DNA from: Patescibacteria group bacterium UBA3466
GTDB lineage: Bacteria > Patescibacteriota > Minisyncoccia > Phycocordibacterales > UBA918
Direction of reading: 5' to 3'
Length of the DNA stretch: 64,000 nucleotides
Assembly (NCBI GenBank): GCA_002378195.1
Contig: DFRJ01000003.1
Coordinates: 32,879-96,878 of the forward strand
In this document: piece by piece, positions 29,003-49,285 of the stretch
Layout: every line of letters begins with the position of its first letter
Position numbering within the stretch: the first letter of the stretch is position 1
Notes under the pieces: model-generated
Databases searched by the model: none
The model's input: the letters and a program-made list of their open reading frames with translations, nothing else
What the model was told of the DNA's origin: nothing
Made by a program: the position numbers and the translations under genes

Positions 29003-32000
29003 ATGTTGCATAAAAATATATGTCGATCTGAATTTATTCGATCTCGTCGTACGCTATTTAAAGCCACATCTCTTCTGATTGTGGTTTCTGTTTTATTAGC
29101 TCCTATAGCTCATGTGTATGGTTTCCATCCAGATAATGATTCCAGCTTAGTGAACAACGACCTGTTAATTTCGAAGAATGTCTCATCATTATCAGATAAT
29201 GGCGTTCAGGTTAATTCTTTTGATGGGTCTCTTTCTTATTCTTACCCTGTCCTTTATCCGTCAGGAGTTAATGGATTCGGCCCTAGTCATAATCTAAGTT
29301 ACAGCTCTAATTCCAAAGAGGAATATTCAATTCTTGGTATTCATGGATGGAATCTCGACATTCCATCCATTAAACTCATTAATAAAACGGGTATAGAAAA
29401 CCTGTATTCAGATCCAGTTTATTATTCTTCAATTTCTGGGGAGTTAGTTCAAGTTGGGGTGAGTTCAGAGTATATTTCAAAGAACGAATCAGGAGATTTT
29501 CATTCGTATACTTTAAGTAATGGTGTTTGGACAATAAGTACAAAATCAGGAGATGTTTATACGCTTGGCAGTACAAGTGCTAGTAGGATAGTTAATCCAA
29601 ATGATAGTAGTGAGATATATGCATGGTATACAAACGAGATAGTTGATACTAATGGAAATTCGATAGATTACTCATACTACAAAGATAACGAATCGTTACT
29701 TATAGATACCATTGAGTATGGCGGTATATACGAAATTGATTTTGAAAGAGTTTCAAAGAATTCAACCTCTACTACCCACGAAGCGACCTTTGAAATCAAT
29801 CAGACGAAGGCGGTTGATAGAATACAAGTCATAGTAGATGGTCAAGATGAGTACTACTATGATCTTACTCTGACTTCAGCAGTGAATCCTAATCATGTAC
29901 TTTTAACTCAAATTGACATGGTAGGTGGTAGTGACCAGCTGACAACCGAATTTACATACAATGATAATTCGCTCATGCCATTTTCTGCTGATCAAGATGA
30001 TGATGGTGCAAACGGTAAATGGGACATTGGAAACGGTAAATGGCTTTATGAAAAAGGCGCTTCAAACAAATGGAGGTTTGTAGATGTGAATGGAGACGGG
30101 TTAGCAGATTTCGTGGGTGATGGAGATGTATACCTCAATGACGGCGAGGAATTTGTTTTTAATTTAACATGGTCAACAGCATTGATTGATTTTATCTACG
30201 ACGATACATTGTCACTACGATTTCCAGATATTAATGGCGATGGCTTGGTCGACATAATCTATTCTACTGACGAAGCATATAATACTGGTTGGTTTAGTGA
30301 CGTTTATTTAAATAATGGATCTGGTTGGACTTATGACGCATCGTTTGACGAGAGCCTTGCAACTAATAGCGCCAGGTTTGCATTTGTTGACACAGATGGA
30401 GTGGATGATCTTGGGTGGAGAGTGATTGACGTAAACGGAGATGGTTTGGCAGATCTAATTCATGATAATGATTTAAATTATCCGGACAACACTAATGCTG
30501 TGTATATTAATGACGGTAGCGAGTGGACTCTGAGTAGTGATTTCATAATACCTGCTGATAACGGATTTGCATTACACAACGCGTATGGATTTATTATAGA
30601 CATAAATGGTGACGATCTACCGGATTTGGTCAGTTCATATGAAGTGAATAGTTCTTGGGTAAAGAGAGTTTATGTGAATACTGGTACTGGTTGGGTTGAT
30701 CATGATGGATTTAAGAATAGTCTACCAGCTGCATTCGTTGACGATCCTGGCAGTAGTTCTAATTTCATAGATCACGGTTATCGTCTTGTTGATATCAATA
30801 ATGATGGATTAGCTGATATCGCTTGGCAAACAGATAGTGGGTCAAATCGCCTGAGATATTATCTCAACTTAGGTGATAGTTGGGACACAACTTTTACAGA
30901 AACTGCATGCTGTAATCCCGGCTGGGGCCAAAAGTTACAATACGGAGCTACAGCTTTTGTAGATATTAATGGTGACTCATTAATCGATATATTGTCGGCA
31001 CATAAAATTAGTAGTAGTAACAAACTTGATTCAATTCATATTGCAGCTGGTGGAAAGCCCGATGTTCTGACAGAGGTGGTAAATCAACATGGTGGAACAA
31101 CAAAAGTTTTCTACAAAGGAAGTCAGGAAACAGTTTCAGGATCACAACGTAACGTAGATCTACCAATTGCATTATATGTTGTGGCGTCAACTACCAAAGA
31201 TAATGGCTTCGGACAGGTTATCGAGACCCTTTATGATTATGATTATGGTGAGATATATTTTGATACCGCAGACTTACGAGATCGACGGTTTGGTGGTTTT
31301 GGTGAGTTTACGGAAGAGGTTGTGGGTCTTAACAAAACCATCGTTAATTTTCACCAAGGTAACGACTTAGATTCTAGCTCAGAAGAAGAAAGTGATGGAG
31401 AGCATTTAATTGGTAGAATGTATCAGACTAAGATAACCAATAACTCCGACAGTCTTTATCTTCTAAATCGAGTTAACTATTCTACAACTAGTCTAGGAGA
31501 CGGAAGTGTATTTACTAAGACTGATAGTGTTGTAGAGCTTGCTTATGATGGAGACGTAGACGAAAGGGCTAAAGCTGTTTCGTATACGTACGATGATACT
31601 CATGGTTCAGTATTGTCTATGGTTGAATATGGAGAAGTAAACGGAAACTCAGACGGTACTTATACAGATTCAGGGACTGATAAGAGGACAAGTCTTTATG
31701 AATATGCGACAAGTTCGGATGGATTGGTAGCTGTAACAAAAGAAACCCTTAATGATAATAGTAATACCAAAATTCAAGAATCAGTCTATTATTATGACGA
31801 TTTAACTTATGGATCTGCTGCTCTTGGCAACCTAACAAAAAGAGAAGATTGGGTTACCGGGGCCACTTTTGTTGACACTGAATGGGACTATAACAGCAAC
31901 GGACTAGTAACTACAGAAACTGACCCAAAAGGAAATGCTATTAATTATGATTACGATACCTATAATTTGTATCTAGCTTCTTCTACAAATGCTGAAGGTC

Positions 32001-35000
32001 ATAGCTCGCTTTATGAATATGATTATGTATTTGGGAATCTTTCAACGACAACCAATCCTAATGGTGAGTTATTTGTAACCGAGTTCGATGATCTTGGCAG
32101 ACCTATCACTATCGTTGGTCCAGACCCGCAAACCGGAAGTCCTGTTGTAATAACTGAATATGAATATACAGATACAGTTGGTGCAGTGAGTACTAAACAA
32201 ATAAATCATTTGGACGAAACTATAAGCAATGATGTTTATTCGTATTTTGATGGATTTGGTCGGATAATTCAGGAGAGAGTTGAAGCGGAGGATAGTAACG
32301 AATATGTGGTCCGAGATATTGTGTATGGAGATAATGGTTTGGTAAGTAAGGAATCGTTACCTTTTTACGATATGGGATCAGCTAGATCCTCCGCGCAGAC
32401 CGATACTGATTTACTCAGTCAGTACACATATGATGCCCTTGGTAGAGTCACTGCTTTAACTACAGCTGTTGGCACATCCAACACTTCGTATGATCAGTGG
32501 AAGGAAACTCATACAGATACAGAGAATAATGATGTAAGCTTTGAATATGATGCGTATGATCAAATCAGTATTGTCACTGAAAATGAAGGTCTAAATAGCT
32601 ATACAACCGAATATGACTGGAACCCAAGAGGAGATCTTGTAACTATTACAGATGCGGAAGGGAATGAGCGAAACATTGTTTATGATGGGTTATCTCGTCG
32701 GACAAGCTTAGAAGATCTTCATGATACTTCAGATACAAGCTTCGGAACTTGGTCGTTTGTGTATGATGATGCTGGTAACTTAACTCAAAAAACTGATCCT
32801 GAGTCCCATGTTGTTAATTACACCTACGATGACATTAATCGTATCCTGACTGAGGACTATACTGGCGAATCTGGAACAGAGATCACTTATTCATACGATT
32901 CATGTACGAATGGTATTGGATATATTTGTTCAATTACTGATACTGATATGACAACTTCTTACGCTTATACTGCAAATGGTCTTACTGAATCAGAAACTAG
33001 ATTATTAAACAGTACTTCATACGTAACAAGTTACGACTATAATCGACAAGGCGATCAAACTGAAGTTACATACCCAGACAGTTCAGTTGTGAAATACACA
33101 TATCATAAGGGTAGAAATGTAGACAAGATTGAACAAAAAGAAGACGGCGATAGCTTCGCAGAGATAATATCTGACCTGAACTATGGACCACACGGGTTAG
33201 TAGAATTCATGGAGCATAGTAATGGTATTGAGACTACAAGGACATATCGTGCCGATGAACTTTATCGATTATCAAACATTGTAAGTGTCGCTACGAGTTC
33301 AGGTACTGGTTCAGGAGGTGATGCTCACCGTACTTTAGAAGCAGAACTTTTCGAGTTAACTGAAGCAATGGTAACTGAGGAGGCTGTTGAGACAGTGGAA
33401 GAATTAGTTCTAGAAGAGCGGGCAGAAGAGAGGATAGTAACTTCAGAAATTGTAGAAGAGGTAGTTGAAGAGATAGAACCAGTTGAACAATCAGCAACCA
33501 TATCTTCTTCTACTGAAGAAATACAGATACAAGATGACATACAAAATGTTGAAACTTCCACTTCGACAGAAAATCTTGAACAAAGCTCTTTCGATAATGT
33601 GATTGAAGAGCCTGTTCTATTGCCTACTCAATCTGATTCAACTGAAGAAATGATAAAAACTGAAAGTAAAGACAAGAAGATATTAGGAAAACAGGAAAAA
33701 GCTAGATTAATTTACGAAAAGACAAAGCGGAAATCACACGATCGAGATAAATACAAAATCGATATTGTAGATATGAATGAGGTGGAAGATGGTGTGGCAG
33801 TCTTTGCAAGAGTTTGGGATAGAGGTGAGCAAATTGGCTTTGGACAGGATGGAACAGTTGATATCGAAAGGTTTATCTTTAAGAATCCGCCGATTAGTGT
33901 GCCAGATAAGAGCGTCACTTATACCTATGAATTAGATGGAGAGACCTTTAGCGCCTATGGTTTCAAAGAGGATCCGGAGGAGGCTCTTCTGCAATCTCTA
34001 GAGCATGTAATTGAAGCAAAAAAACTTAAATTCAATGACGAAAAAATCAAACAAGGAAAGGTCGGGAATACCACTACAACATTCTATCCATCAGCTGGTC
34101 AGAGTAGTCCGGTAGATGGAGGGTTGATACAGTGGTTTGCTGGAGGGACCTCATGGTCATCAATCCGTAACGACACAACTAGTTCGTGGGTTCATGATGA
34201 TATTGATGGAGTTGGAGCATTCAATACTGCTCAGATCTACGACGGATACAATGGAGCATGGAATGGTATGTCCCGAGGGGTATTCGGCTTTGATACCTCG
34301 TCATTAGGCTCCGATACCATAGATGCTGTGACTTTATCAATCCATGGAAGCGCAAAGACTGATGGATACTCAGGTGCAGATGTTGTGGTTGATAGAGTTG
34401 TTCCAGCTAGCAATAGTTCATTGGCAGTAGGTGATTTCGATCTCACTAATTGGGATGAGACACTACAGTCAGACACGAGAATAACAATATCTGCTTGGGA
34501 TAATACTGATTACAATGACTTTGTATTAAATAGTATTGGAGAAGGGAACATTAATTCTTCGGGTATCTCTTGGTATGGAGTCCGTCATGGTATGGACTTT
34601 GATGATGCTGAGCCAACTAGAATCAGTACGAATAGTAGAATTATTACTCGGTACGCAGATGCAAACGGAACTTCAGAAGATCCTAAGTTAATAGTAGAGC
34701 ACACCGGTTCAGCGGCTGGCAGTAGCGGATCAGGTATACAGAGCTTAGAGTACGAGTATGATTCAGTTGGTAACATCACAAAGATTACCGACACTTCGAG
34801 TACAACTCTCTTAGGTGAAGTAGACTATATCTACGATGATTTGTATCGATTAGCTTCTGCATCGACTACAAATTCTGCAACAAGCTCTTATCTCAGAAAC
34901 TTCACTTATAACTCAATTGGTAACATACTGACAAAGACAGGTGGGGGTACCTATGTGTATGCTGGTGACACAGGAACTAATTATGCGAATCCTCATGCAG

Positions 35001-36208
35001 CTACTTCAATCGGAGGAGTGTCAGTTAGTTATGATGACAATGGAAACGTGACAGCTTTCGGTTCTGATTCTTATACCTGGAACTATCGAAATGAGTTAAT
35101 TGAATCAGATGTGAATGGGGCGACTACTACCTATGCTTACGATCATAATGGTGATCGAGTGAGTAAATCATCTGATGGAAATACCACATACTATGTTTCA
35201 AGTATGTATGAAGTAGAGGACAGTGATATTACTAAGCATGTGTACCTTGGAGATATGCTGGTAGCAACCATTGAGTCTGACGGTTCTGCTGATGAGATCC
35301 ATCATAATCACCTTGATCATCTCAATTCAACCAATGTGGTCACTAATGCTTCGGGAACAGTTGATCAACTACTCAGCTACTATCCATTTGGATCGATGAG
35401 GGTAGATCAGAAGTTAGGGACGGTGGATCAGAGCAAGCGCCATACCGGCCATGATTATGATGAAGAAACGGATCTAAACTATATGGGTGCAAGGTATTAC
35501 GCCGGCGACACTGGACGCTTTACCTCTCAGGATCCGGTATCCCTAGCTCTGGGAGATTGGAAAACAGTTCAGGACAAGACTGGAGGTAATTTAGCCTTTT
35601 ATCTTCAAAATCCGCAAACCCACAACTCCTACAGCTACACAGCAAATAATCCGCTGAAGTATGTTGATAAGAATGGTGAATTTATCTGGTTTGCCCCTGC
35701 TGTCATATATGCTCCTCAAATATTGGCTGGTCTAGCAGCTTTGTCGACACCATTAGGTGTGGCTATGTTGGTGGATGATTATCAAACCCTGACTAATAAC
35801 CCTGATGGTCTAGATCTTGCTCTCATTGCTGTACCAGGAGTCTTAGGTAAGGCTGGAGATGTAGCGAAAGTCTCGATGAACAGAAATGCTTGGTCTGCAG
35901 GACGAGCAGGTAATGCTCAGAATAGCTTAACTAATCACTTTAAGGATCATGGGGAATTGTTAGGTGCTAAGTCAGCTCAGGAGTATTACGACAGAGCTAA
36001 TGACGCTATGAAACCAGGTAGTGGTTTTACGAGATTGGAGAATGCTGATGGAAAGGTCGATTATTACAATCCAAGTAACAGAGAGTTGGTTGGCTTAAAT
36101 GAAAAAGGTCAAATATCTACGTATCATAAAGTTACGAATACAAACAAAGCTGAAGGACTTGATTATCGGGTTAAGAAGAAGCAAAATGAAAAGAATGGAG
36201 GAGGATAA
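29003..36208 (+). CDS. giant RHS/YD-repeat polymorphic toxin with SpvB-like N-domain and FG-GAP repeats (fused TcB/TcC-like)
   Basis: Signal peptide/TM. SpvB-like motif at YPVLYPSGVNGFGPSHNLSYSSNS. At least six VDVNGDGLAD-type FG-GAP repeats. Many YDYD/YEYD YD repeats. RHS core ending YMGARYYAGDTGRFTSQDP. C-terminal variable domain of about 230 aa. Confidence 0.85.
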   Translation: MLHKNICRSEFIRSRRTLFKATSLLIVVSVLLAPIAHVYGFHPDNDSSLVNNDLLISKNVSSLSDNGVQVNSFDGSLSYSYPVLYPSGVNGFGPSHNLSYSSNSKEEYSILGIHGWNLDIPSIKLINKTGIENLYSDPVYYSSISGELVQVGVSSEYISKNESGDFHSYTLSNGVWTISTKSGDVYTLGSTSASRIVNPNDSSEIYAWYTNEIVDTNGNSIDYSYYKDNESLLIDTIEYGGIYEIDFERVSKNSTSTTHEATFEINQTKAVDRIQVIVDGQDEYYYDLTLTSAVNPNHVLLTQIDMVGGSDQLTTEFTYNDNSLMPFSADQDDDGANGKWDIGNGKWLYEKGASNKWRFVDVNGDGLADFVGDGDVYLNDGEEFVFNLTWSTALIDFIYDDTLSLRFPDINGDGLVDIIYSTDEAYNTGWFSDVYLNNGSGWTYDASFDESLATNSARFAFVDTDGVDDLGWRVIDVNGDGLADLIHDNDLNYPDNTNAVYINDGSEWTLSSDFIIPADNGFALHNAYGFIIDINGDDLPDLVSSYEVNSSWVKRVYVNTGTGWVDHDGFKNSLPAAFVDDPGSSSNFIDHGYRLVDINNDGLADIAWQTDSGSNRLRYYLNLGDSWDTTFTETACCNPGWGQKLQYGATAFVDINGDSLIDILSAHKISSSNKLDSIHIAAGGKPDVLTEVVNQHGGTTKVFYKGSQETVSGSQRNVDLPIALYVVASTTKDNGFGQVIETLYDYDYGEIYFDTADLRDRRFGGFGEFTEEVVGLNKTIVNFHQGNDLDSSSEEESDGEHLIGRMYQTKITNNSDSLYLLNRVNYSTTSLGDGSVFTKTDSVVELAYDGDVDERAKAVSYTYDDTHGSVLSMVEYGEVNGNSDGTYTDSGTDKRTSLYEYATSSDGLVAVTKETLNDNSNTKIQESVYYYDDLTYGSAALGNLTKREDWVTGATFVDTEWDYNSNGLVTTETDPKGNAINYDYDTYNLYLASSTNAEGHSSLYEYDYVFGNLSTTTNPNGELFVTEFDDLGRPITIVGPDPQTGSPVVITEYEYTDTVGAVSTKQINHLDETISNDVYSYFDGFGRIIQERVEAEDSNEYVVRDIVYGDNGLVSKESLPFYDMGSARSSAQTDTDLLSQYTYDALGRVTALTTAVGTSNTSYDQWKETHTDTENNDVSFEYDAYDQISIVTENEGLNSYTTEYDWNPRGDLVTITDAEGNERNIVYDGLSRRTSLEDLHDTSDTSFGTWSFVYDDAGNLTQKTDPESHVVNYTYDDINRILTEDYTGESGTEITYSYDSCTNGIGYICSITDTDMTTSYAYTANGLTESETRLLNSTSYVTSYDYNRQGDQTEVTYPDSSVVKYTYHKGRNVDKIEQKEDGDSFAEIISDLNYGPHGLVEFMEHSNGIETTRTYRADELYRLSNIVSVATSSGTGSGGDAHRTLEAELFELTEAMVTEEAVETVEELVLEERAEERIVTSEIVEEVVEEIEPVEQSATISSSTEEIQIQDDIQNVETSTSTENLEQSSFDNVIEEPVLLPTQSDSTEEMIKTESKDKKILGKQEKARLIYEKTKRKSHDRDKYKIDIVDMNEVEDGVAVFARVWDRGEQIGFGQDGTVDIERFIFKNPPISVPDKSVTYTYELDGETFSAYGFKEDPEEALLQSLEHVIEAKKLKFNDEKIKQGKVGNTTTTFYPSAGQSSPVDGGLIQWFAGGTSWSSIRNDTTSSWVHDDIDGVGAFNTAQIYDGYNGAWNGMSRGVFGFDTSSLGSDTIDAVTLSIHGSAKTDGYSGADVVVDRVVPASNSSLAVGDFDLTNWDETLQSDTRITISAWDNTDYNDFVLNSIGEGNINSSGISWYGVRHGMDFDDAEPTRISTNSRIITRYADANGTSEDPKLIVEHTGSAAGSSGSGIQSLEYEYDSVGNITKITDTSSTTLLGEVDYIYDDLYRLASASTTNSATSSYLRNFTYNSIGNILTKTGGGTYVYAGDTGTNYANPHAATSIGGVSVSYDDNGNVTAFGSDSYTWNYRNELIESDVNGATTTYAYDHNGDRVSKSSDGNTTYYVSSMYEVEDSDITKHVYLGDMLVATIESDGSADEIHHNHLDHLNSTNVVTNASGTVDQLLSYYPFGSMRVDQKLGTVDQSKRHTGHDYDEETDLNYMGARYYAGDTGRFTSQDPVSLALGDWKTVQDKTGGNLAFYLQNPQTHNSYSYTANNPLKYVDKNGEFIWFAPAVIYAPQILAGLAALSTPLGVAMLVDDYQTLTNNPDGLDLALIAVPGVLGKAGDVAKVSMNRNAWSAGRAGNAQNSLTNHFKDHGELLGAKSAQEYYDRANDAMKPGSGFTRLENADGKVDYYNPSNRELVGLNEKGQISTYHKVTNTNKAEGLDYRVKKKQNEKNGGG

Positions 36209-39067: not shown

Positions 39068-40813
39068 CTATTTATAGCATGGTTCTTCTGATTTTTCTGA
39101 GAAGGTGTCAAATTCTTTCCTATTAACCGGAATTGATCCACCGATTGGTCCTTTTGGCTTCTTAAGTCGTTCAGAATAAGGAATTTTATCTTTGATACAA
39201 TACTCGATGTTAGTTGTCTCGATTTTTTTGTTTACTTCAACTTCTACTGGTACCGAGCCGTGGTATTCAACTTTATCATTGTAGTAAACAACCTTGTTTG
39301 TAAAATCAAGGAGAAATTTACGTCTAGTGTCAAAGTCATAGCATTTCCTGTATCTAGCTTTAGCCTCAGTACAGTACTTCTTCACTGCGATATCAACGAT
39401 ATCTTTTTTGTGCAAGAGTGGAATCTTTTTCAGCAACTCTTGTTTCTCCAGTTTTAACTTATTAATCGTATTATCAAGTTCTAGACTCTTATCTACGTAT
39501 TCATTTCTATCAATTTCGCTGGAAGTATAAATATCAATCAGTCGCTTTTTTGTTAGCTCAATCTTCCTCATCTTCTCTTCGTTTGACTTTATTTTCTTGT
39601 TGAACCGTATCTCATTTGCTTGTACTCGACGCTTGAAATGGCTCATGCACGCCTTCAGTTTCCTGTCACTAAACAGATGACTCTCAATCATAGTGAAGAC
39701 TTTCTCCTCAAGAACCGATCCCTTAATAGCAATATTGTCACAAGGTTTCATTTTCGGCCTGTTCTTCTCAGCATGCATATATTTGCTGAATTTATAATTG
39801 CATTTATATGAAAGCTTGTAGTACGCCTTGGGTTTTTTCATACGTTTATCTACGTAGTAACGCCGATTAGCAAAGATGCTCCCGTCACAGCACCCGCATC
39901 GCACTAGGGAAGAAAGCATTTGTGGGACTCTCGGGTTCCTATATCTTTTTCGATTATGTTCTAGTTTCGTTTGAGCCTTATTGAATAGTTCTTTTGAGAT
40001 AATTGATGGTACTGGTACTCCAATCCATTCACTACGATCTCGCTTAACTACCTTGGTTTTATGTTCTGAACTAGTTAAACTTTTCTTTTTCATTGTGTTG
40101 TAGTAACGGACTCCGGTATACATTTCTTGGTTTAGCATGGCTTTGATAAGCGATACTCTCCACAGTCCTCGACCTTGTTTTGTTGGGGCGTTCATTTCTT
40201 CTAATTGCTGACACATTTTGTTCATACCAATTTCACCATTGGTGTAGGTTTCAAATATCCAGCGGACTATCTTTGCTTCTGTTTCATTTATAGTATATGA
40301 AGGAGGTGACGTTTGGGTTCTGCGGTGATGATCATAACCATACACCTGGCATCCATTTCCAGAGAGAGTACCTTGGCTAATACGAAGCTGTTTCGACCGC
40401 ATCACTCGTTCTACAATCTTTGCTCTTTCTAGTTCCGCGACGGCCCCTAGGACAGTAAGAGTAAATTTGTTTTCAGGATTATGAACGTAGTCTTTCCCGT
40501 TGATGATTATCTGTTTTTTGTATTTAAGAATCTCAGCAATAATAATCGTTTGATAGGTCACTTCTCGGGCTATACGATCTGTATTTAGAAAATAGATGGT
40601 ATCAAATTGCTTCGTTTTTAGATCCTCACGAAGCTTATTCATGGCAGGCCTGTCTAACTCAGCTCCACTATAACCATCATCAATGTATTCCTTGACTAAG
40701 ATGTGGCCAGCTTCAGCTATTTGTCTTTTTAATGCTTCAATCTGGCTTTCAATGGTTTTATCCCTTCTTTGCAAGGACGAACTCACCCTTGCATATAATG
40801 TTGCTCGTTTCAT
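39068..40813 (-). CDS. large serine recombinase
   Basis: N-terminal resolvase catalytic domain (LYARVSSSLQ with the Ser nucleophile), recombinase domain, CGCCDG...C zinc ribbon. 581 aa. Confidence 0.85.
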   Translation of the reverse strand: MKRATLYARVSSSLQRRDKTIESQIEALKRQIAEAGHILVKEYIDDGYSGAELDRPAMNKLREDLKTKQFDTIYFLNTDRIAREVTYQTIIIAEILKYKKQIIINGKDYVHNPENKFTLTVLGAVAELERAKIVERVMRSKQLRISQGTLSGNGCQVYGYDHHRRTQTSPPSYTINETEAKIVRWIFETYTNGEIGMNKMCQQLEEMNAPTKQGRGLWRVSLIKAMLNQEMYTGVRYYNTMKKKSLTSSEHKTKVVKRDRSEWIGVPVPSIISKELFNKAQTKLEHNRKRYRNPRVPQMLSSLVRCGCCDGSIFANRRYYVDKRMKKPKAYYKLSYKCNYKFSKYMHAEKNRPKMKPCDNIAIKGSVLEEKVFTMIESHLFSDRKLKACMSHFKRRVQANEIRFNKKIKSNEEKMRKIELTKKRLIDIYTSSEIDRNEYVDKSLELDNTINKLKLEKQELLKKIPLLHKKDIVDIAVKKYCTEAKARYRKCYDFDTRRKFLLDFTNKVVYYNDKVEYHGSVPVEVEVNKKIETTNIEYCIKDKIPYSERLKKPKGPIGGSIPVNRKEFDTFSEKSEEPCYK

Positions 40814-41169: not shown

Positions 41170-41904
41170 ATGAATACAACAGTAGCTCCCGACTGGGAGC
41201 ATTTTAAGATATTGATACAAGAGCGTATCAAGAACTTTTGGGGTTACGGCAACCTCAACGGCCCATACTGGTTCATCGGTATGGAAGAAGGTTATAACGA
41301 AACAAACGAAATATTACTAGACCGCTTCACCGCTACTGCTCATCAGCAAGTCTGTGATATCTATGATGATCTAAAAGTAGACCCTGGTCATGTTTATTGG
41401 TTTGAAGATGGAGCACCAATACAGCCGACGTATCGTCGGCTGATTGAAATGATGCTCTACTCTCAAAGCAAGGTTCATCCGGATAAGGAAGAAATTAGAC
41501 AGTTTCAAATTGAAAAACTGGGTCGAAAGCAAAGTAACCATGCGCTACTTGAACTCATGCCACTGCCATCAAAGTCTATTGCAGAAAAAGATTGGCTCTA
41601 CGCTGATTCAGGTGTCGAGGGTTTATCCTCTCGAAAAGACTATTTAGAAACATACAAAAGTGAGCGAATTGAGGCATTACGAAACCTAATTCATAAACAT
41701 AAACCTAAGTACGTGATCTGTTACTCACTGTCATACCAAGAAGATTGGCAACAACTAACGGATAAACCGTTTATAGAAGTGAACCCACGTCGGCTCTATC
41801 TAGCGAGAGATACTGACACCACATTCGCTATTACTCCACATTCAGTTGCTCAAGGTCTCTCCAATAATGATTGGAAAATGATTATCGAAGAGCTATTTCT
41901 TTGA
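41170..41904 (+). CDS. hypothetical protein
   Basis: 244-aa ORF with no recognised motif. Confidence 0.3.
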   Translation: MNTTVAPDWEHFKILIQERIKNFWGYGNLNGPYWFIGMEEGYNETNEILLDRFTATAHQQVCDIYDDLKVDPGHVYWFEDGAPIQPTYRRLIEMMLYSQSKVHPDKEEIRQFQIEKLGRKQSNHALLELMPLPSKSIAEKDWLYADSGVEGLSSRKDYLETYKSERIEALRNLIHKHKPKYVICYSLSYQEDWQQLTDKPFIEVNPRRLYLARDTDTTFAITPHSVAQGLSNNDWKMIIEELFL

Positions 41905-42282
41905 GCCCTTCTTGTTCTTTGACACTTTAGCGGTGTGATTCTTGGGAGCGACGATTTCAATCTTCGTTACTGGAGAGAACGTCGGTTGTTCCACCTTTGG
42001 TCTCGGCTTGATGTACGTCTTCTTGTTGTTATCAAGCCAGTACTGAATCGCCCGCAGATTGCCGTTGTTGATATGCGAAATCAGCTTGCTTTCAGCAAGG
42101 TCGTTCACAGACTGAGTGCCGCACGATAGTGCTGTATCCATTCTCGCTTTGAAGTCGGGATCCTCGTTACACCATCGATAGACAGTGTTACGAGCAATCC
42201 CAACTCGTTCACAAGCGAGTGATACGTTAGGTACCTTTTCGAGTTGTTCGAGGAACGGTAGTTCCTTTCGCTTTCGTTTCAT
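41893..42282 (-). CDS. HTH-domain protein (phage small-terminase / transposase-HTH-like)
   Basis: VSLACERVGIARNTVYRWC helix-turn-helix. Small basic C-terminal tail. Confidence 0.4.
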   Translation of the reverse strand: MKRKRKELPFLEQLEKVPNVSLACERVGIARNTVYRWCNEDPDFKARMDTALSCGTQSVNDLAESKLISHINNGNLRAIQYWLDNNKKTYIKPRPKVEQPTFSPVTKIEIVAPKNHTAKVSKNKKGSKK

Positions 42283-43549
42283 GGCGGATTACCTTTGCCT
42301 TGATGCCTGTTTCAGCTTCAAAGCGTTTAATGGTGAGGTCGCAGAAGATTGGTTCAATCTCCACCGCGAACACTCGGCGCCCTAGCTTCTCGGCGGCTAT
42401 CAGGTTACTTCCTGAGCCGTTGAAGCTATCGAGGATGATATCGTCGGTGTAGGTACAGCGACGAATCGCTTTCTCGTAGAGCAAAACTGGCTTCATCGTG
42501 CTGTGTTCGTACTCTTTGGATGAGAGACGAGCTTCAGGCCAGATGGTGAAATGGTCGTGTACTTGGTCAATGAGTGCGTTACCAGTGGTCATATCGTTAT
42601 TCATGATTTCGTTCAGCGAGTTCACCCCTTTGACCAATTTCGGCTTACCACGAGTGCCGTAGGTACACGGTTCGTAGCATTTGTTGAATGCTACCCCTGG
42701 GGTAGGGTTCTGTCCGTTCTTCAGCCACAAGCAGACACGCTTGTTGGTGATACCTAGCTCTCGGTAGAGCGTCTGGATGAGCCAGATGTATGTTTCGTCG
42801 CTCCAGTAGAAGACGTGGGCGTCTGGCTTGGTGACTGCGAGCGCTGCTTCCATGCTGGACTTGAGGAACTGCTTGTATTCAGCGTCTGACTTGCTGTCGT
42901 CTACCGTTCCTCCGTACGCCTGTTTGCCCCCGATACCTTTGTTGTAGTCAACGGCGATGTTATAGATCGGGTCAGACATAATCATGTCCGCTCGTTCGTC
43001 GCCAAACAGGCGTTCAAGCGTCTCAACCTTGGTGGAATCACCGCAGATAAGGCGGTGCTTGCCAAGCTCAATGATGTCACCTGGTTGTGTCGTCGCTTTC
43101 TTAATCTTCTTGAGCTCCTTCTCGGGTTCAAAGTCCTCTCCGACTTTTCCGTTCCAGAGATCGTCCACTATCTTCTGGTCGAATCCTAAATCTAGGAGTA
43201 TCTCAGTACTGAAATTCTTCAGTATCGGGAAGTCCCACTCACCGTCGATAGCGTTACTGGCGATAAGGTAGCGTTTGGCTTCCTCCTCGGTCAGCTTGCG
43301 GTTTGGCACACGGACGTCGATCTTCTCTTCACCGTGCCCGGTATCCTTCAGCACCTTAATACGTTGGTGTCCGGCGAGAATCGTGCCGTCGATGTCGATG
43401 GCGGGAATTTCTACCAGACTGAAGTCGCTGAGGCTCTGCTTCAAGCGCTCTGCCTGTTCCTTGCTAATCTTGCGTGGCGTATCTTTGTGGGGAGTGAGGC
43501 TGTTTACCACTCGCTCCTCGGTGTGCCACTGTAATTGTGTTGTTTGCAT
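42227..43549 (-). CDS. ParB-like nuclease domain fused to an N6/N4 DNA methyltransferase
   Basis: N-terminal ParB/Srx-like region. SDPIYN (DPPY-type motif IV) and DSFNGSGSN (motif I). Start chosen at MQTTQ. Confidence 0.75.
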   Translation of the reverse strand: MQTTQLQWHTEERVVNSLTPHKDTPRKISKEQAERLKQSLSDFSLVEIPAIDIDGTILAGHQRIKVLKDTGHGEEKIDVRVPNRKLTEEEAKRYLIASNAIDGEWDFPILKNFSTEILLDLGFDQKIVDDLWNGKVGEDFEPEKELKKIKKATTQPGDIIELGKHRLICGDSTKVETLERLFGDERADMIMSDPIYNIAVDYNKGIGGKQAYGGTVDDSKSDAEYKQFLKSSMEAALAVTKPDAHVFYWSDETYIWLIQTLYRELGITNKRVCLWLKNGQNPTPGVAFNKCYEPCTYGTRGKPKLVKGVNSLNEIMNNDMTTGNALIDQVHDHFTIWPEARLSSKEYEHSTMKPVLLYEKAIRRCTYTDDIILDSFNGSGSNLIAAEKLGRRVFAVEIEPIFCDLTIKRFEAETGIKAKVIRHETKAKGTTVPRTTRKGT

Positions 43550-43584
43550 ACTATTGTATTGCTTATTTACTAAACAAACGAAAA

Positions 43585-43622
43585 GGGCCCCGCACACCGA
43601 AAATATCGGTTGTGCGGGGCCC
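43585..43622. terminator. GC-rich hairpin between the methylase gene and the upstream minus-strand ORF
   Basis: gggccccgcacaccga aaat atcggttgtgcggggccc. Confidence 0.5.
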
Positions 43623-43832: not shown

Positions 43833-44114
43833 TTAAAGGTTGTTTTGGATCCATGAACCGACATTGTTTGACAAATTCCACCACGCTGCACTATCGTCAG
43901 TTACGTTAATGACAAGGAGCTTATCGTTCCGGTCGATATACGCACCGACGTCATCTCGAAATTGTTCGGCAGAACGAGCGGTTTTGATTAAGTAGACAGA
44001 GCGTACAGGCTTCGCCCAACTTGAATGCGATTCAAGAAAACCGTGTAGACGTGAGTAGTCCTTTCCGGGAGCCATCAAGTCATATGTCACCAGTAGGGTA
44101 TTCATATTACACAT
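43833..44114 (-). CDS. hypothetical small protein, divergent from the repressor-like gene
   Basis: ORF (start MCNMNTLLVTYDL). Loose resemblance to the Cas2/VapD-type beta-alpha pattern only. No firm motif. Confidence 0.3.
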   Translation of the reverse strand: MCNMNTLLVTYDLMAPGKDYSRLHGFLESHSSWAKPVRSVYLIKTARSAEQFRDDVGAYIDRNDKLLVINVTDDSAAWWNLSNNVGSWIQNNL

Positions 44115-44244: not shown

Positions 44245-44886
44245 ATGCATCAACTACAAGAACAATTATTACTTTTGGCGAAGGGTCAGGACTTGGGTCC
44301 TTTAAGCCTCCGTCAGATTGCCAAGCTTATCGGTGCAGACGGTAAGCCACAGATTGTTAAACATCACCTGCTACAGCTCGATAAGCAGGGTCTTTTGCAG
44401 GTGAATCTTGATGAGAATGTAATAAAGCCGATTAAGCGTGGCTTCAATATGCCACAGGCAAAGCGACTATTCTTCTCGCTCCCGATTGTTGGTATGGCAA
44501 ACTGTGGTCCGCAGACTGTATTTGCCGATGAACGTGTTGAGGGGTACCTCAAAGTTTCAGCAAAGATGTTGCCTCGACGAAAACAAGATCTCTATATCTT
44601 GGTCGCTGATGGTCCGTCTATGAACAAAGCAGAGGTTCGTGAGGGAGTGACGATCGAAGATGGTGATTACGTGGTGGTAGACAGTAAAGACGTTACGCCG
44701 AAGGATGGTGAGATTGTCGTAGCTGTGATTGATGGTCTAGCGACCATCAAGCGTTTCCGTAAGGACAATAAGAACAATCGTATTGTTCTCGAAGCTGACT
44801 CTACAGAGAACTACCATCCAATCTACATCTCTGAAGATGATGAGTTCCAGATAAGCGGAAAAGTAGTTGATGTGATTAAAAAATAA
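44245..44886 (+). CDS. LexA/CI-like repressor (winged helix plus S24 peptidase domain)
   Basis: N-terminal wHTH. C-terminal S24 Ser-Lys dyad context GPSMNKA ... ATIKRF. Upstream TTGACG/-10 promoter-like sequence. Confidence 0.8.
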   Translation: MHQLQEQLLLLAKGQDLGPLSLRQIAKLIGADGKPQIVKHHLLQLDKQGLLQVNLDENVIKPIKRGFNMPQAKRLFFSLPIVGMANCGPQTVFADERVEGYLKVSAKMLPRRKQDLYILVADGPSMNKAEVREGVTIEDGDYVVVDSKDVTPKDGEIVVAVIDGLATIKRFRKDNKNNRIVLEADSTENYHPIYISEDDEFQISGKVVDVIKK

Positions 44887-44897
44887 GTAATAAAATC

Positions 44898-45269
44898 ATG
44901 AAAAGAGTATTTATCAGTTTTGCAATGGAAGACAAGACGTATCGAGACTTTTTAGTAGGTCAGTCAAAGAACGAGAACTCTCCATTCACGTTTGTTGATA
45001 TGTCTGTAAAAGAACCTTGGAAGTCAGAATGGAAGACAAAATGTCGTACTAAGATTAAAGGTTGTGATGGTGTAATTGGTTTGATTAGTAAAAATACACC
45101 CGCAGCTGACGGAGAAATTTTTGAGCTCAAGTGTGCATACGAAGAAGATGTGCCAGTAATGCTTATGTACATAAATGATGACCGTCCAGTGTTGCCTGCA
45201 TTTCTAAAAAATAAGCGAATTAATGTGTGGAGTTGGGCAAATATAAAAGCATTTATTTCAAAACTCTAA
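44898..45269 (+). CDS. TIR-like domain protein (MTH538/DUF1863, ThsB-like)
   Basis: MKRVFISFAMEDK N-terminus, about 120 aa, and a conserved Trp/acidic pattern typical of the bacterial TIR-like fold. Confidence 0.5.
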   Translation: MKRVFISFAMEDKTYRDFLVGQSKNENSPFTFVDMSVKEPWKSEWKTKCRTKIKGCDGVIGLISKNTPAADGEIFELKCAYEEDVPVMLMYINDDRPVLPAFLKNKRINVWSWANIKAFISKL

Positions 45270-45271
45270 TT

Positions 45272-46216
45272 ATGAAAAAAGCACTTGCAGTAGGAATTGA
45301 TGAATATCCGACAGCACCTCTGAATGGTTGCATAAATGATGCTTCTGCGTTAGCAAATACTCTCGAAAAGAATGGTGATGGGTCTCCGAATTTTGATGTC
45401 CGTCTCTTAACCAATGTCTCTACCAAATCTGAGTTTATGACAGCCATTACAGAGCTGTTTGAGGGAGATTCTGATATTGCGCTACTTTATTTTTCTGGGC
45501 ATGGGCACTTAGATTCAAAGGGTGGTTTTTTGGTGACACCCGATCATCAAAAGAATGACGAAGGGGTGTCAATGAACACAATTCTTGGGCTGGCTAACAA
45601 ATCTAAAGCAAAAGATAAGATAATCATCTTGGACTGCTGTCATTCTGGGCAATTTGGTTCTCCAGATGTCGCTGGTGAACAAACAGTGACACAAATTGCT
45701 GAAGGGGTAGTTGTTTTGACAGCCAGCAAGAATGACGAGGCGTCTGTCGAAGTTAACGGCCACGGAATCTTTACCAGTTTACTTATTGATGCCTTGCAAG
45801 GTGGTGCCGCTGATTTACGTGGAGAAATCACTCCGGGAAGTGTATACGCATATATCGATCAAGCATTAGGACCTTGGGATCAGCGGCCAGTATTTAAAAC
45901 AAATGTCTCTCGCTTTACTTCGTTAAGAAAAATTAACCCCCAAGTTCCTGCGGAAAAACTGAGAATGATTGTTGAATATTTTGAAAAGCCAGAGTCGGAA
46001 CATAAACTAGATCCAAGTTATGAATTCGATAATAAGGATATTGCTGATCCAGATAAGGTAGAGATTATGAAGGATTTACAAAAATTTGTGAGCGTAGGTC
46101 TAGTTGTTCCTGTTGGCGAAGAGCATATGTATTATGCTGCTCAAAATTCTAAATCATGTAGACTGACTGCACTTGGATATCACTACTGGCGTTTGGTTAA
46201 AGAGAAGAAGCTTTGA
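45272..46216 (+). CDS. caspase-like (peptidase C14) protein with extra C-terminal domain
   Basis: His-Cys dyad contexts YFSGHGH and ILDCCHSGQ in the canonical order and spacing. Start codon overlaps the upstream stop. Confidence 0.75.
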   Translation: MKKALAVGIDEYPTAPLNGCINDASALANTLEKNGDGSPNFDVRLLTNVSTKSEFMTAITELFEGDSDIALLYFSGHGHLDSKGGFLVTPDHQKNDEGVSMNTILGLANKSKAKDKIIILDCCHSGQFGSPDVAGEQTVTQIAEGVVVLTASKNDEASVEVNGHGIFTSLLIDALQGGAADLRGEITPGSVYAYIDQALGPWDQRPVFKTNVSRFTSLRKINPQVPAEKLRMIVEYFEKPESEHKLDPSYEFDNKDIADPDKVEIMKDLQKFVSVGLVVPVGEEHMYYAAQNSKSCRLTALGYHYWRLVKEKKL

Positions 46217-46219
46217 TTT

Positions 46220-46681
46220 ATGAAAACAGTCAAGACAATTTCAGGTGAGATACTTTTGTATTTTTATTTATTACAGAGACAAGATGTGGGACAGCTAAAA
46301 GATGCTCGTGTGAGCTTTGGTTTTTGGCAGTCACGTCAAGATAATAATGTGTCAGGCGTGCAACTTGATAGGCGATCAGAATCAATTTTTGGAGTCGATG
46401 ACTTTAAAGAATATACAGACAATGATTTGTACAATGCAATCGTATACCTAAGTGATTCAGGCTTGATTGATTTTAAGGATTCCCCAGATAATACTGGTTC
46501 AAATTTATTTAATTTCAAAGTTTCGGCATACGGTATTGATATAGTGGAAGGTATCGAGAGAGGTGAAGAAGAAAAGAAAGTTTTTAATATGACTTTCAAT
46601 TTCAATATTAACAATGATGTAACTGTCGAAAGTTTACTTAAAGCAGAATTCGGAGCTTTGTTTAAAGCTTCAGTGCTTTAA
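46220..46681 (+). CDS. hypothetical protein (operonic with the caspase-like gene)
   Basis: 3-nt gap to the upstream gene. No motif. Confidence 0.35.
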   Translation: MKTVKTISGEILLYFYLLQRQDVGQLKDARVSFGFWQSRQDNNVSGVQLDRRSESIFGVDDFKEYTDNDLYNAIVYLSDSGLIDFKDSPDNTGSNLFNFKVSAYGIDIVEGIERGEEEKKVFNMTFNFNINNDVTVESLLKAEFGALFKASVL

Positions 46682-46691
46682 ACTCTGTGGT

Positions 46692-47267
46692 ATGTCTGAA
46701 AACAACGCACACCTCGGGGAAACGTATGAGCAAAGACTGAAGCGGTTTAACGAAAACCACCCAATTGAAGTTATTGAGACGGTCATAAACTCAATGGCGA
46801 ATCATTTTGTAAATGAACTAAGAGCTGTTTTTGATAATCCACCGAATCGTCAGACCACATTGATGTTTCTGGGCACTCACTCAATTGCGCTTACTATCTC
46901 ACATGGAATCTTCGGTGAGGATGGACTGAAGGGTTACAGGTTATTTCTTCAGAATTTTATCGATGGTAAAACCCCCGATACTCAATTCTCTGAAATAGCG
47001 GCGGAGATACATGAGTGGCGTAACGTACTTGCACATAGATGGATAAATGTAGCAGGACATAGTATTAGCTATAACTTTGATATGTCCGAAGGATGGGTTC
47101 GTGATGGAGAATTCTTGATATTGAACCCGCAAGTATATTTGAATCAATATCTGAAAGCTTTTGGTGCAGGTGGAAGAATTTATCGCTACGACCAAATCCT
47201 TACTACTGAGGAGGAATATGAAGCAGCAAAACAAAGGTTCATTTCAAAGTACGAAGACAAAGCGTAA
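46692..47267 (+). CDS. hypothetical protein with HEPN-like R-x4-H motif
   Basis: EWRNVLAHRW contains R-N-x-x-A-H, as in Abi-type HEPN domains. Confidence 0.35.
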   Translation: MSENNAHLGETYEQRLKRFNENHPIEVIETVINSMANHFVNELRAVFDNPPNRQTTLMFLGTHSIALTISHGIFGEDGLKGYRLFLQNFIDGKTPDTQFSEIAAEIHEWRNVLAHRWINVAGHSISYNFDMSEGWVRDGEFLILNPQVYLNQYLKAFGAGGRIYRYDQILTTEEEYEAAKQRFISKYEDKA

Positions 47268-47505: not shown

Positions 47506-48174
47506 ATGGGTGCAAGGTATTACGCCGGCGATACTGGACGCTTCACTTCGCAGGATCCGGTAGCATTAGCTCTAGGAGATTGGAAAACAGTTCAGGACAA
47601 GACTGGAGACAGGCTAGGCTTTTATCTTCAAAATCCCCAAACACACAACTCCTACAGTTACACAGCAAATAATCCGCTCAAGTATGTAGATAAGAATGGT
47701 GAATATATTGAGTCTGCAATTGATATAGGGTTCATTGCCTACGACCTCTACAAGATTGGAGAGGCTGTGGTAACAGGTGGTGATGTAAAAGCTGAGATTG
47801 GATACCTAGGACTTGATCTGGCTGGTTTAGCTGCACCGGGTGGTACAGGGTTTGGACTGGCGGCACGAATGGCTCTTAAGAATGGAGATAATTTCTATCA
47901 AGCTGGAAAGATTATAGAAAATATCTCCAGCTCAGATTTGAAGTCGCTCAAGTCGCTAGATAAGCAAATTCAAAATCACCAGAAAAAGCTAAATGATTAC
48001 GTCAAAAATCCAGATAAGTTTGACAACGATGGACGACTTAAAGCTGCCGGAAATAACACTGAATTACGAAATCAAATAATTAATGGTAGAGTTGATAAAC
48101 TAAATCGAGAGATTAAAACCTTTGAGGGTAATGCCGAGAAGATTATTAAAAAGTATGACAAAAAAAATGACTAA
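47506..48174 (+). CDS. orphan RHS C-terminal toxin cassette
   Basis: First about 65 aa (MGARYYAGDTGRFTSQDP...NNPLKYVDKNGE) are near-identical to residues of the giant RHS protein at 35480-35690. The tail diverges. Confidence 0.8.
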   Translation: MGARYYAGDTGRFTSQDPVALALGDWKTVQDKTGDRLGFYLQNPQTHNSYSYTANNPLKYVDKNGEYIESAIDIGFIAYDLYKIGEAVVTGGDVKAEIGYLGLDLAGLAAPGGTGFGLAARMALKNGDNFYQAGKIIENISSSDLKSLKSLDKQIQNHQKKLNDYVKNPDKFDNDGRLKAAGNNTELRNQIINGRVDKLNREIKTFEGNAEKIIKKYDKKND

Positions 48175-48478
48175 AACACTCACAATCAAAGGAGATGAAC
48201 TCAAGAAAGTCCTCGACAGACTTGTGATGGATGGTGATACATTTGAACTTGAAGTCGATTCTTTTTGGGAGATTAACGATGATGAAGTATACAACATTGA
48301 AGAATCTCCAAAGAATTTCAGTATTGGTCAAGTGACAGAAGAATGGGAAATGCTGAATAAGAGCTTAGAGGATGAAGACTACTATCCACTCAATACTGAC
48401 CTGAGAAATCTAGGGAGGATTTTGAAGGCGATTGGGGACACTGTCGATCAGTCAAAGACTAACGAGCAAAGAGATTAA
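48167..48478 (+). CDS. putative immunity protein for the orphan toxin
   Basis: ATG overlaps the toxin stop. Small acidic protein. Confidence 0.4.
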   Translation: MTKTLTIKGDELKKVLDRLVMDGDTFELEVDSFWEINDDEVYNIEESPKNFSIGQVTEEWEMLNKSLEDEDYYPLNTDLRNLGRILKAIGDTVDQSKTNEQRD

Positions 48479-48487
48479 TCTCTCGCC

Positions 48488-48573
48488 TCAGCTCTTAATC
48501 ATTGAGTCATATTCTTTTCTACCAATTTGGACCGATCCACCGATCGGTCCTTTTGGTCTTTTGATTCTGTCTG
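48488..48573 (-). pseudogene. 3' fragment of a second serine recombinase gene
   Basis: Minus-strand translation RIKRPKGPIGGSVQIGRKEYDSMIKS* parallels the C-terminus RLKKPKGPIGGSIPVNRKEFDTFSE of the recombinase at 39068-40813. The upstream body is absent. Confidence 0.55.
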
Positions 48574-48597
48574 CGTAGCGAATTAGAAAAAGCGGGA

Positions 48598-49139: not shown

Positions 49140-49285
49140 TAACGTCGTTTCAGACTCGTAGCCTGCTCAAACAGAAAACACCCAATAGGGTGTTTTCTGT
49201 TTGAGCAGGCTACTCGATAAAAAATAATCTGGAGGATTATTCCACGGGGATCGAAAAGCGGTTTGATATTTTAGTTTTACTACTT
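49140..49285 (+). repeat. repeat R1, copy b: perfect 26-bp hairpin plus conserved core
   Basis: gtagcctgctcaaacagaaaacaccc aata gggtgttttctgtttgagcaggctac. Core aataatctggRggattatt...tcgaaaagcggtttga is shared with 28642-28790. Confidence 0.5.

Follow-up and report, generated by a model that had tools for sequence, protein, structure and literature searches.

The lambda genes cI-rexA-rexB form a prophage repressor-plus-defence operon, and P2/P4-like elements have defence hotspots. Type IV Thoeris is a two-gene operon in which a short TIR protein (ThsB) is paired with a caspase-like protease (ThsE); the TIR produces N7-cADPR, which leads to activation of an Arg-specific protease, and the proposed sensor is the C-terminal domain of the caspase (Rousset et al. 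2024/2025, bioRxiv 10.1101/2024.10.24.620036). In the published systems the TIR-caspase pair alone is sufficient for defence, and the published detection rule looks for a PF08937 or PF13676 TIR within one gene of the caspase at an i-Evalue <= 0.1 (bioRxiv 10.1101/2024.10.24.620036).

In the window, the 64,000-nucleotide stretch of DNA analysed here, we found five ORFs read on the plus strand between positions 44245 and 47267: an S24 gene, a TIR gene, a caspase gene and two small genes, ORF4 and ORF5. The spacers between them are, in order, 11, 2, 3 and 10 nt. The initial annotation had described five co-directional genes almost without spacers, which holds, and a stop/start overlap of the second and third genes, which does not. 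The overlap arises only when an upstream GTG at 45227 is taken as the caspase start; because all caspase homologues begin MRKAL or MKKAL, we place the start at an ATG that follows the TIR stop codon after a 2-nt spacer (TAA TT ATG). The motifs cited in that annotation are all present: MKRVFISFAMEDK in the second gene, FSGHGH and DCCHSGQ in the third and WRNVLAHRW in the fifth. When we scanned the region for promoters and terminators, the counts equalled those of shuffled sequence, so it is the gene spacing that carries the single-operon reading. Since the spacers are only 2–11 nt, the defence genes are probably co-transcribed with the S24 repressor gene, a prediction made by analogy with rexAB and lambda cI. 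A nucleotide search of the region against a phage collection returned a single weak match, 162 nt long, in a Salmonella caspase gene.

The second gene (44898..45269, plus strand) encodes a short TIR protein of 123 aa that resembles ThsB and is the predicted type IV Thoeris signal generator. The window protein matches PADLOC ThsB (1.7e-4) and TIR_2 (PF13676, E 4e-3), and it scores 20.7 bits against ThsB_TIR PF08937 (E 5.5e-4), 0.5 bit short of the gathering score of 21.2. Across the family, 27 of 30 members match PF08937 (best E 3.8e-14), and the family profile matches the solved structures PDB 8fz9 at 6.7e-7 and ThsB 8wcf at 1e-4, which bears out the earlier description of a small ThsB-like TIR. 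E76 is invariant in 30 homologues and coincides in alignments with the Glu found in both solved TIRs, 8fz9 and 8wcf. The third gene (45272..46216, plus strand) encodes a caspase-like protease of the ThsE type, 314 aa when counted from the ATG and the predicted type IV Thoeris effector, with a caspase domain at approximately residues 1–200 and a conserved C-terminal domain at approximately residues 200–314. It matches Peptidase_C14 PF00656 (E 8.2e-22), phrog_18397 over its full length (4.7e-87) and the NCBIfam model caspase_w_EACC1 (3.4e-34, 118 bits, below the cut-off of 140 bits); a PDB search with the single caspase sequence gave no match. H77, C122 and C123 are invariant across 16 homologues and, together with the PF00656 match, they confirm the caspase His/Cys dyad that had been noted. 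The C-terminal 115 residues are strongly conserved in the homologue alignment, and the suggestion that this extra domain is a likely signal sensor is in line with the role proposed by Rousset et al.

To the published detection rule, the window pair presents both TIR profiles, at the E-values given above, in a gene 2 nt upstream of the caspase gene; the effector is a Peptidase_C14 protein with its His/Cys dyad, and the TIR has its catalytic Glu (E76). We found that the window caspase is 62% identical over its full length to a protein of Legionella nautarum ATCC 49506; with the A. faecimaris DSM 23095 and P. ganghwense caspases, the full-length identity is 64–65%. Table S1 of Rousset et al. (bioRxiv 10.1101/2024.10.24.620036) lists all three species as carrying type IV Thoeris, and the homology link runs via these listed genomes, not via the tested PsTIR/PsCaspase or E. 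coli 328 proteins. At related loci in many bacterial phyla and archaea, a TIR-profile ORF adjoins the caspase in 75 of 80 cases, with gaps mostly of 1–20 nt. Taken together, these domain identities, conserved catalytic residues, homologies to listed systems and co-occurrence statistics make it very probable that the TIR and caspase genes form a new instance of the already described type IV Thoeris, occupying the cargo slot in a small integrated element, and that the other three genes are the element repressor and two independent passengers. The cluster is anti-phage defence cargo, as had been proposed. The proposal that the TIR-caspase combination is undescribed has been overtaken, as the pairing was published in 2024-25 under the type IV Thoeris name.

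In the window copy, the TIR (123 aa, Glu76) would sense phage infection and turn NAD+ into the cyclic signal N7-cADPR, which would bind to the ThsE caspase-like protease (His77/Cys123) at its C-terminal domain. The signal-bound protease would then be switched on for promiscuous, arginine-specific proteolysis, and this proteolysis would abort the infection; both the signal chemistry and the protease specificity are predictions for this pair. The locus is like type IV Thoeris of Rousset et al. in the 62–65% identity of its caspase to those of species in the list of detected systems and in the retained catalytic Glu of its TIR. Unlike the system as published, the window copy sits behind an S24 repressor in a Patescibacteria-type lineage, within a serine-recombinase element, and is trailed by two unrelated small genes. 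Literature searches that combined type IV Thoeris with LexA or Patescibacteria turned up no relevant paper.

The region forms the cargo-carrying end of an integrative element of approximately 8–9.5 kb that runs from a recombinase gene at 39.07 kb to approximately 47.3–48.6 kb, and related elements are found in Patescibacteria-type MAGs. The element had already been suspected, and it is supported by a large serine recombinase at its left end (39068..40813, minus strand; Pfam Resolvase 4.6e-25, Recombinase 9.4e-19) and by a 79-nt direct repeat, D1, found by a repeat search. The left copy (39107..39185) lies within the 3' end of the recombinase gene and is a candidate att site or element boundary; the right copy (48506..48584) is a recombinase C-terminus remnant, 58% identical to recombinase residues 545–570 by tblastn, and a possible right boundary. 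The copies are 71% identical with a spacing of 9399 nt, and they share the core GATCCACCGATyGGTCCTTTTGG. An orphan rhs toxin cassette separates ORF5 from the right copy. On the right, the element could end either at approximately 47.3 kb or at 48.58 kb.

The proposed backbone order is serine recombinase, 244-aa gene, small HTH gene, N6/N4 methyltransferase gene and divergent wHTH-S24 repressor gene. The 244-aa gene (41170..41904, plus strand) has no match in Pfam, PADLOC or PHROG, and a 60% identical homologue occupies the same backbone position in a relative of the element (locus L090). The HTH protein (41893..42282, minus strand; 129 aa) resembles small terminases and transposase HTH proteins (Pfam HTH_Tnp_1_2 4.6e-7, Sf6_terminase 1.6e-3), and its homologues, with 38–77% identity, adjoin a methylase in L005-L009, L016, L017, L019, L030, L090 and L091. 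The methyltransferase gene (42227..43597, minus strand; 440 aa with an end near 43549 in the public gene call) matches Pfam N6_N4_Mtase (1.1e-23) and PADLOC MTase_II (5e-54) and has homologues with 41–70% identity in the same position at 12 related loci. Between it and the S24 gene, the public-contig gene call has a 90-aa phage-family protein (43833..44105, minus strand; phrog_1090, 4.1e-23) with a weak Cas2-like signal (PADLOC Cas2b, 8e-4). The HTH gene, the methylase gene and the divergent S24 gene recur together in L005, L008, L009, L016, L017, L019, L030, L090 and L091; in L006 and L007, the HTH-methylase part is present and an S24 homologue was not detected. We detected no capsid or tail genes among the element genes examined.

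ORF5 (46692..47267, plus strand) encodes a HEPN-like protein of 191 aa with an Rx4HxW motif, which we read as an independent passenger and a candidate RNase toxin or abortive-infection gene. R110-N-V-L-A-H115 fits the HEPN pattern Rx4-6H, and R110, N111, A114 and H115 are invariant across 33 ORF5 homologues, so at the motif level the earlier HEPN-like assignment appears sound. ORF5 has no sequence-profile match, a Foldseek search against the PDB gave nothing significant, a Pfam scan of 10 distant relatives found no bridge to a known HEPN family, and a scan of viral contigs found no relatives. It is possible, if not the reading we favour, that ORF5 is no HEPN nuclease and is instead an unrelated helical protein, for instance the product of a structural or backbone gene of the element, in which the R-N-x-x-A-H motif serves a different purpose. 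ORF5 relatives follow SMODS-AGS_C+SLATT_4, Shedu or a 1265-aa protein, or adjoin R-M systems and recombinases; in the window, the neighbours are the wHTH gene and the rhs cassette. The most likely role of ORF5 is that of a HepT-like RNase toxin or abortive-infection gene that works on its own, and it is also found with other defence systems. Unlike the HepT/MntA HEPN toxins (PDB 7ae2, 5yep), ORF5 lacks an MNT partner (we found no NTase domain in the cluster or in the recorded Pfam matches around ORF5 homologues), its aromatic residue is Trp and not the AMPylated Tyr, and it has an additional beta-hairpin and a helical C-terminal part. TIR, caspase and ORF4 are absent from all six distinct ORF5 contexts. 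We rejected ORF5 as a second Thoeris effector on the grounds that its relatives follow SMODS-SLATT, Shedu and other systems.

The cargo slot would lie downstream of the S24 repressor and be bounded on the right by the winged-helix ORF4, with type IV Thoeris filling it in the window copy. In L091/L092, the same backbone with a 59% identical S24 carries PDC-M48A/B in place of Thoeris, and in L164 a CD-NTase+Cap15 pair precedes an ORF4 homologue 89.5% identical to the ORF4 of L090. The arrangement is like lambda cI-rexA-rexB in that a CI/LexA-type S24 gene is followed on the same strand, almost without spacers, by abortive-infection cargo, and it is like P2/P4-like hotspots in that the cargo between conserved flank genes (type IV Thoeris, PDC-M48, CBASS-Cap15) is swapped among related elements. 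Unlike these systems, the window backbone is small, approximately 9 kb, and has a serine recombinase. In Patescibacteria-type genomes, type IV Thoeris travels on a small integrative element, in a slot whose cargo can be swapped. Should repressor and cargo share a transcript, the abortive-infection system (type IV Thoeris here, PDC-M48 or CBASS at other loci) would be linked both to the repressed state of the element and to DNA damage. A wider generalisation is that, in a family of small serine-recombinase elements of Patescibacteria-type genomes, the space from an autocleaving S24 repressor gene to a winged-helix gene is maintained as a defence hotspot, and that the 191-aa gene represents a novel and very small HEPN toxin family, HepT-like but without an MNT antitoxin, that acts as a stand-alone defence behind diverse systems; we offer this combined claim as a tentative and rather doubtful one.

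The first gene of the cluster (44245..44886, plus strand) encodes a wHTH-S24 protein of 213 aa, an autocleaving repressor of the LexA/CI/UmuD type. It matches Peptidase_S24 PF00717 (E 4.3e-23) and the phrog_4 transcriptional repressor (7e-23), and the NCBIfam lexA model TIGR00498 aligns to residues 19–213, the N-terminal part included, at 86.4 bits (cut-off 110.95). The C87-G88 cleavage site, S125 and K169 are invariant in 9 S24 homologues, so that the protein has the S24 domain, the intact Ser/Lys dyad, the cleavage site and the predicted N-terminal DNA-binding part of an S24 autocleaving repressor. We rejected the gene as the host LexA, as its score for the lexA equivalog model is below the cut-off and the gene is part of the element backbone. 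Of the two roles raised in the initial annotation, a repressor of the element or a source of damage inducibility for the cluster, the evidence favours a CI/LexA-like repressor of the element, with the 59% identical homologue preceding PDC-M48 on the same backbone. A dedicated regulator of the Thoeris operon, which would hold the toxic protease off until self-cleavage triggered by damage or infection, would be consistent with the intact cleavage site and dyad, with the distance of only 11 nt to the TIR gene and with an S24 homologue directly upstream of TIR-caspase in approximately 10 Patescibacteria-type loci. It is nevertheless unlikely: the S24 gene is followed by a different defence system in the PDC-M48 elements, is always divergently paired with the backbone methylase and is not a neighbour of TIR-caspase loci outside the element family, whereas L006 and L007 have the backbone and TIR-caspase without a detectable S24 homologue. 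The roles of element repressor and dedicated Thoeris regulator are compatible in one S24 protein.

ORF4 (46220..46681, plus strand) encodes a 153-aa protein with a wHTH fold and a conserved C-terminal helical tail, which we read as the right flank gene of the cargo slot and not as part of Thoeris. Winged-helix regulators such as BrxR/CapW-type or PadR/MarR-like proteins are embedded in defence loci, and ORF4 is like them in being a small wHTH protein near varied defence systems (its relatives recur beside R-M, CBASS, Thoeris and PDC-M48). Unlike these regulators, ORF4 has no WYL or other sensor domain, carries the helical tail and lies downstream of the cargo instead of upstream and divergent; we detected no sequence relationship to either group of families. 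Among 64 metagenome ORF4 loci, none has a TIR, caspase or ORF5. ORF4 most likely acts as a DNA-binding regulator or a flank gene and is a separate unit that also travels with other defence systems. Because at least one diverged relative (L090, 72% identity, same element family; two further cases are suggested) also has ORF4 behind the TIR-caspase pair, the gene may have a clade-specific accessory role.

The adjacency of ORF4 and ORF5, with a 10-nt spacer, and the usual requirement of HEPN toxins for a neutralising partner, with no MNT-type partner found, would fit a toxin-antitoxin or abortive-infection pair of their own, in which the wHTH protein is both antitoxin and repressor and the HEPN protein the toxin. 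We consider this very improbable and rejected it, as the two do not co-occur outside the element: the six ORF5 contexts lack ORF4, ORF4 contexts lack ORF5, and in L164 the gene that follows a 73% identical ORF4 homologue is unrelated to ORF5.

The initial annotation had read the cluster as a candidate for one new four- or five-gene system. In such a system, a TIR signal would activate both the caspase and a HEPN RNase, the 153-aa protein would be an accessory and the S24 protein would give damage induction; five co-directional genes 2–11 nt apart, the recurrence of ORF4 behind TIR-caspase in L090 and the HEPN-like ORF5 speak for it, but we give it next to no credence, as it is largely refuted by co-occurrence, with ORF4 or ORF5 relatives in 0 of 80 TIR-caspase loci even by HMM at E<=1 and the ORF4 and ORF5 contexts described above equally empty of the proposed partners, while ORF4 has a wHTH fold and is not an effector enzyme, and the TIR-caspase pair is enough for defence in published systems (bioRxiv 10.1101/2024.10.24.620036). 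The predicted co-occurrence in other genomes is absent for ORF5 and, for ORF4 with TIR-caspase, is confined to the same element family (L090). ORF4 and ORF5 relatives are found beside CBASS, PDC-M48, type I R-M, SMODS-SLATT and Shedu, never together outside the element; because they adjoin these unrelated defence systems without TIR-caspase, the HEPN protein is not the Thoeris effector partner that had been suggested. Thus, the defence cargo, the TIR-caspase pairing and the HEPN-like fifth gene of the original interpretation stand, while its novelty and its module do not. A false lead is thereby removed, in that the TIR-caspase pairing already has a name and what looked like a five-gene module has accreted from independent units. 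Two uncharacterised families, one of wHTH proteins in defence islands and a tiny one of HEPN-like proteins, emerge as candidate regulators or single-gene defences.

The caspase is 60–79% identical among Patescibacteria-type MAGs, Bacteroidota, Bacillota, Proteobacteria and archaea, and this similarity across distant lineages points to frequent horizontal transfer of the gene.

The window carries an already described defence system, type IV Thoeris, in a mobile-element hotspot. We found that the five genes of the cluster are real open reading frames on the forward strand: gene 1 (S24; 44245-44886, 213 aa), gene 2 (TIR; 44898-45269, 123 aa), gene 3 (caspase; 45272-46216, 314 aa counted from the ATG common to all homologues), ORF4 (46220-46681, 153 aa) and ORF5 (46692-47267, 191 aa). 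The spacers are, in order, 11, 2, 3 and 10 nt, which bears out the co-directional, tight packing described in the initial annotation; the stop/start overlap it placed between genes 2 and 3 exists only with an upstream GTG start and disappears, leaving the 2-nt spacer, with the homologues' ATG. The window is part of a marine metagenome contig, and its genes recur on a JGI contig of 152 kb as well as on TARA scaffolds.

In Pfam profile searches, the gene 2 protein itself falls just short of the ThsB_TIR gathering score (20.7 against 21.2 bits), but 27 of 30 homologues match that model (best E = 3.8e-14), which supports the proposed TIR-like assignment. The family profile reaches solved TIR and ThsB structures (8fz9, 6.7e-7; 8wcf, 1e-4), and Glu76, which is invariant among homologues, aligns with the Glu of solved TIR/ThsB structures. 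Gene 3 encodes a caspase (PF00656, E = 8e-22) whose C-terminal domain, about 115 residues long, is strongly conserved, and H77 and C122/C123 are invariant in its homologues. A short TIR with a caspase-like protease forms an abundant, phage-protective two-gene operon in which the TIR product N7-cADPR switches on a promiscuous, arginine-specific protease, a system named type IV Thoeris (ThsB/ThsE) (Rousset et al., bioRxiv 10.1101/2024.10.24.620036). Relatives of the window caspase number more than 7500, and many of them are 65-79% identical to it along the full length. When we scanned for the caspase with one genome per species, we obtained 80 loci from Patescibacteria-type MAGs, Bacteroidota, Bacillota, Proteobacteria and archaea; a TIR adjoins the caspase in 66 of the 80 by tblastn and in 75 by HMM, usually at a distance of 1-20 nt, and a second TIR is frequent. 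Three of these loci come from species (Legionella nautarum ATCC 49506, Algoriphagus faecimaris DSM 23095 and Photobacterium ganghwense) in Table S1 of Rousset et al., which lists detected type IV Thoeris systems. Because the caspases of these three species are 62-65% identical to the window caspase, and because the detection rule of Rousset et al. captures genes 2 and 3, the pair is, as judged from sequence, a type IV Thoeris system. The initial annotation read the sequence accurately; its view of an undescribed system falls with the published TIR-caspase combination, and the accompanying idea of a TIR signal acting on a protease with a C-terminal sensor agrees with the published mechanism. 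Loci L009 and L011, the closest Patescibacteria-type relatives, carry a second, divergent ThsB TIR directly 3' of the caspase (6946-7353; PF08937, 1e-15 in L009), in the place held by ORF4 in the window.

Mostly by homology, we propose that the S24 repressor would maintain the element and probably drive the cluster. The TIR protein would sense infection and make N7-cADPR from NAD+, and this signal would be bound by the caspase C-terminal domain; the activated protease would then cut cellular proteins after arginine and so abort infection. ORF4 probably encodes a DNA-binding protein, as a regulator or flank gene, and ORF5 probably a stand-alone HepT-like RNase.

ORF4 and ORF5 had been grouped with genes 2 and 3, and perhaps gene 1, as one module, but neither tblastn nor family HMMs, even at E<=1, detected relatives of either in the 80 caspase loci, and TIR, caspase and ORF5 are all absent from 64 metagenome ORF4 loci. 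On sequence evidence, ORF4 and ORF5 are not part of the type IV Thoeris system. A toxin-antitoxin pairing of the two was also rejected, since we found no case of ORF4 and ORF5 together outside the window element.

Relatives of ORF4 lie 3' of a TIR-caspase pair in L090 (same element family as the window), 3' of PDC-M48A/B in L091/L092 (same backbone), 3' of CD-NTase + Cap15 in L164 (89.5% identity to the L090 ORF4) and within type I R-M operons in L093 and L094. Neighbours of the closer ORF4 clade include HsdS, HsdM, SMODS, ThsA_Macro, GmrSD and RhuM. A distant ORF4-like wHTH clade from metagenomes (L124-L159, 24-34% identity) adjoins glycoside hydrolase family 3 and OmdA-family genes, not defence genes, so the full ORF4 family extends beyond defence islands.

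ORF5 belongs to a very small family, which forms 113 clusters at 90% identity and has 129 representatives at 50% identity in a set of 1.84 billion proteins. Its members lie 3' of a 226-aa protein gene beside a recombinase and a type I R-M system (L084), 3' of a 1265-aa protein gene on the same methylase backbone as the window element (L085), next to a Bsp6I R-M system (L087), and 3' of a 207-aa protein gene (L089), of SMODS-AGS_C + SLATT_4 (L160) or of a Shedu SduA_C protein gene (L162). In the four loci whose upstream partners were compared (L084, L085, L087, L089), these partners showed no kinship to one another or to ORF4. In Ca. Microsyncoccus archaeolyticus, the Bsp6I-type restriction enzyme and ORF5 relative adjoin a 523-aa LexA_DNA_bind + Peptidase_S24 + C5 DNA methylase fusion (6137-7708 in L087 and 1257-2828 in L088; reverse strand), an unusual architecture that joins a methyltransferase to an autocleaving repressor.

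Between the S24 gene and ORF4 lies a slot that acts like a defence hotspot. In L091 (3519-4992) and L092, which have the same backbone, it holds the PADLOC candidate system PDC-M48A/B (1.9e-61 and 1.7e-40). In L164 a CD-NTase + Cap15 CBASS (143-1656) lies directly 5' of an ORF4 near-identical to the L090 copy. The presence of PDC-M48A/B or CBASS where the window has type IV Thoeris is evidence of recent cargo swapping. The tight gene spacing suggests that cargo is co-transcribed with the S24 repressor, on which promoter and terminator scans were uninformative; such an arrangement would resemble lambda cI-rexAB, where defence cargo is co-transcribed with the repressor.

Gene 1 matches Peptidase_S24 (E = 4e-23) and the phage repressor family phrog_4, and its residues 19-213 align to the LexA model at 86 bits, below the equivalog cut-off of 111. 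Self-cleavage of its product is plausible because a Cys-Gly site (C87-G88) is invariant, together with Ser125 and Lys169, across nine homologues. The backbone of a small HTH gene, an N6/N4 methyltransferase and a divergent S24 gene recurs in L005-L009, L016, L017, L019, L030, L090 and L091, although we detected no S24 homologue in L006 and L007, where the HTH-methyltransferase backbone is present. Because gene 1 sits on this conserved backbone, an S24 protein 59% identical to it heads different cargo in L091/L092, and no S24 neighbour was found at TIR-caspase loci outside the window element family (among the 80), gene 1 is best interpreted as encoding the CI/LexA-type repressor of the element, which favours this one of the two roles initially suggested. 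Between the methylase and S24 genes lies a 90-aa gene (43833-44105, reverse strand) that matches the phage family phrog_1090 (4e-23) and, weakly, Cas2-like PADLOC models (8e-4).

The large serine recombinase gene (39068-40813) contains, within its 3' end, the left copy of a 79-nt direct repeat (39107-39185); the right copy (48506-48584) encodes what is left of a recombinase C-terminus, similar to residues 545-570. The copies are 71% identical, share the partly palindromic core GATCCACCGATyGGTCCTTTTGG, and may represent an att site or a scar left by a tandem or older element. Because an orphan rhs C-terminal toxin cassette (47506-48478) sits between ORF5 and the right repeat, the element ends either at about 47.3-47.5 kb or at 48.58 kb. 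Over 204 nt, this cassette has 90% nucleotide identity to part (35482-35685) of an RHS toxin gene upstream of the element (29003-36208; 2401 aa; SpvB, FG-GAP and RHS repeats), so either the element lies inside an rhs locus or it carries an rhs cassette. A 118-aa ORF overlapping the cassette may be an immunity gene. Downstream of the element, intergenic positions 49158-49213 form a perfect 26-nt inverted repeat with a 4-nt loop.
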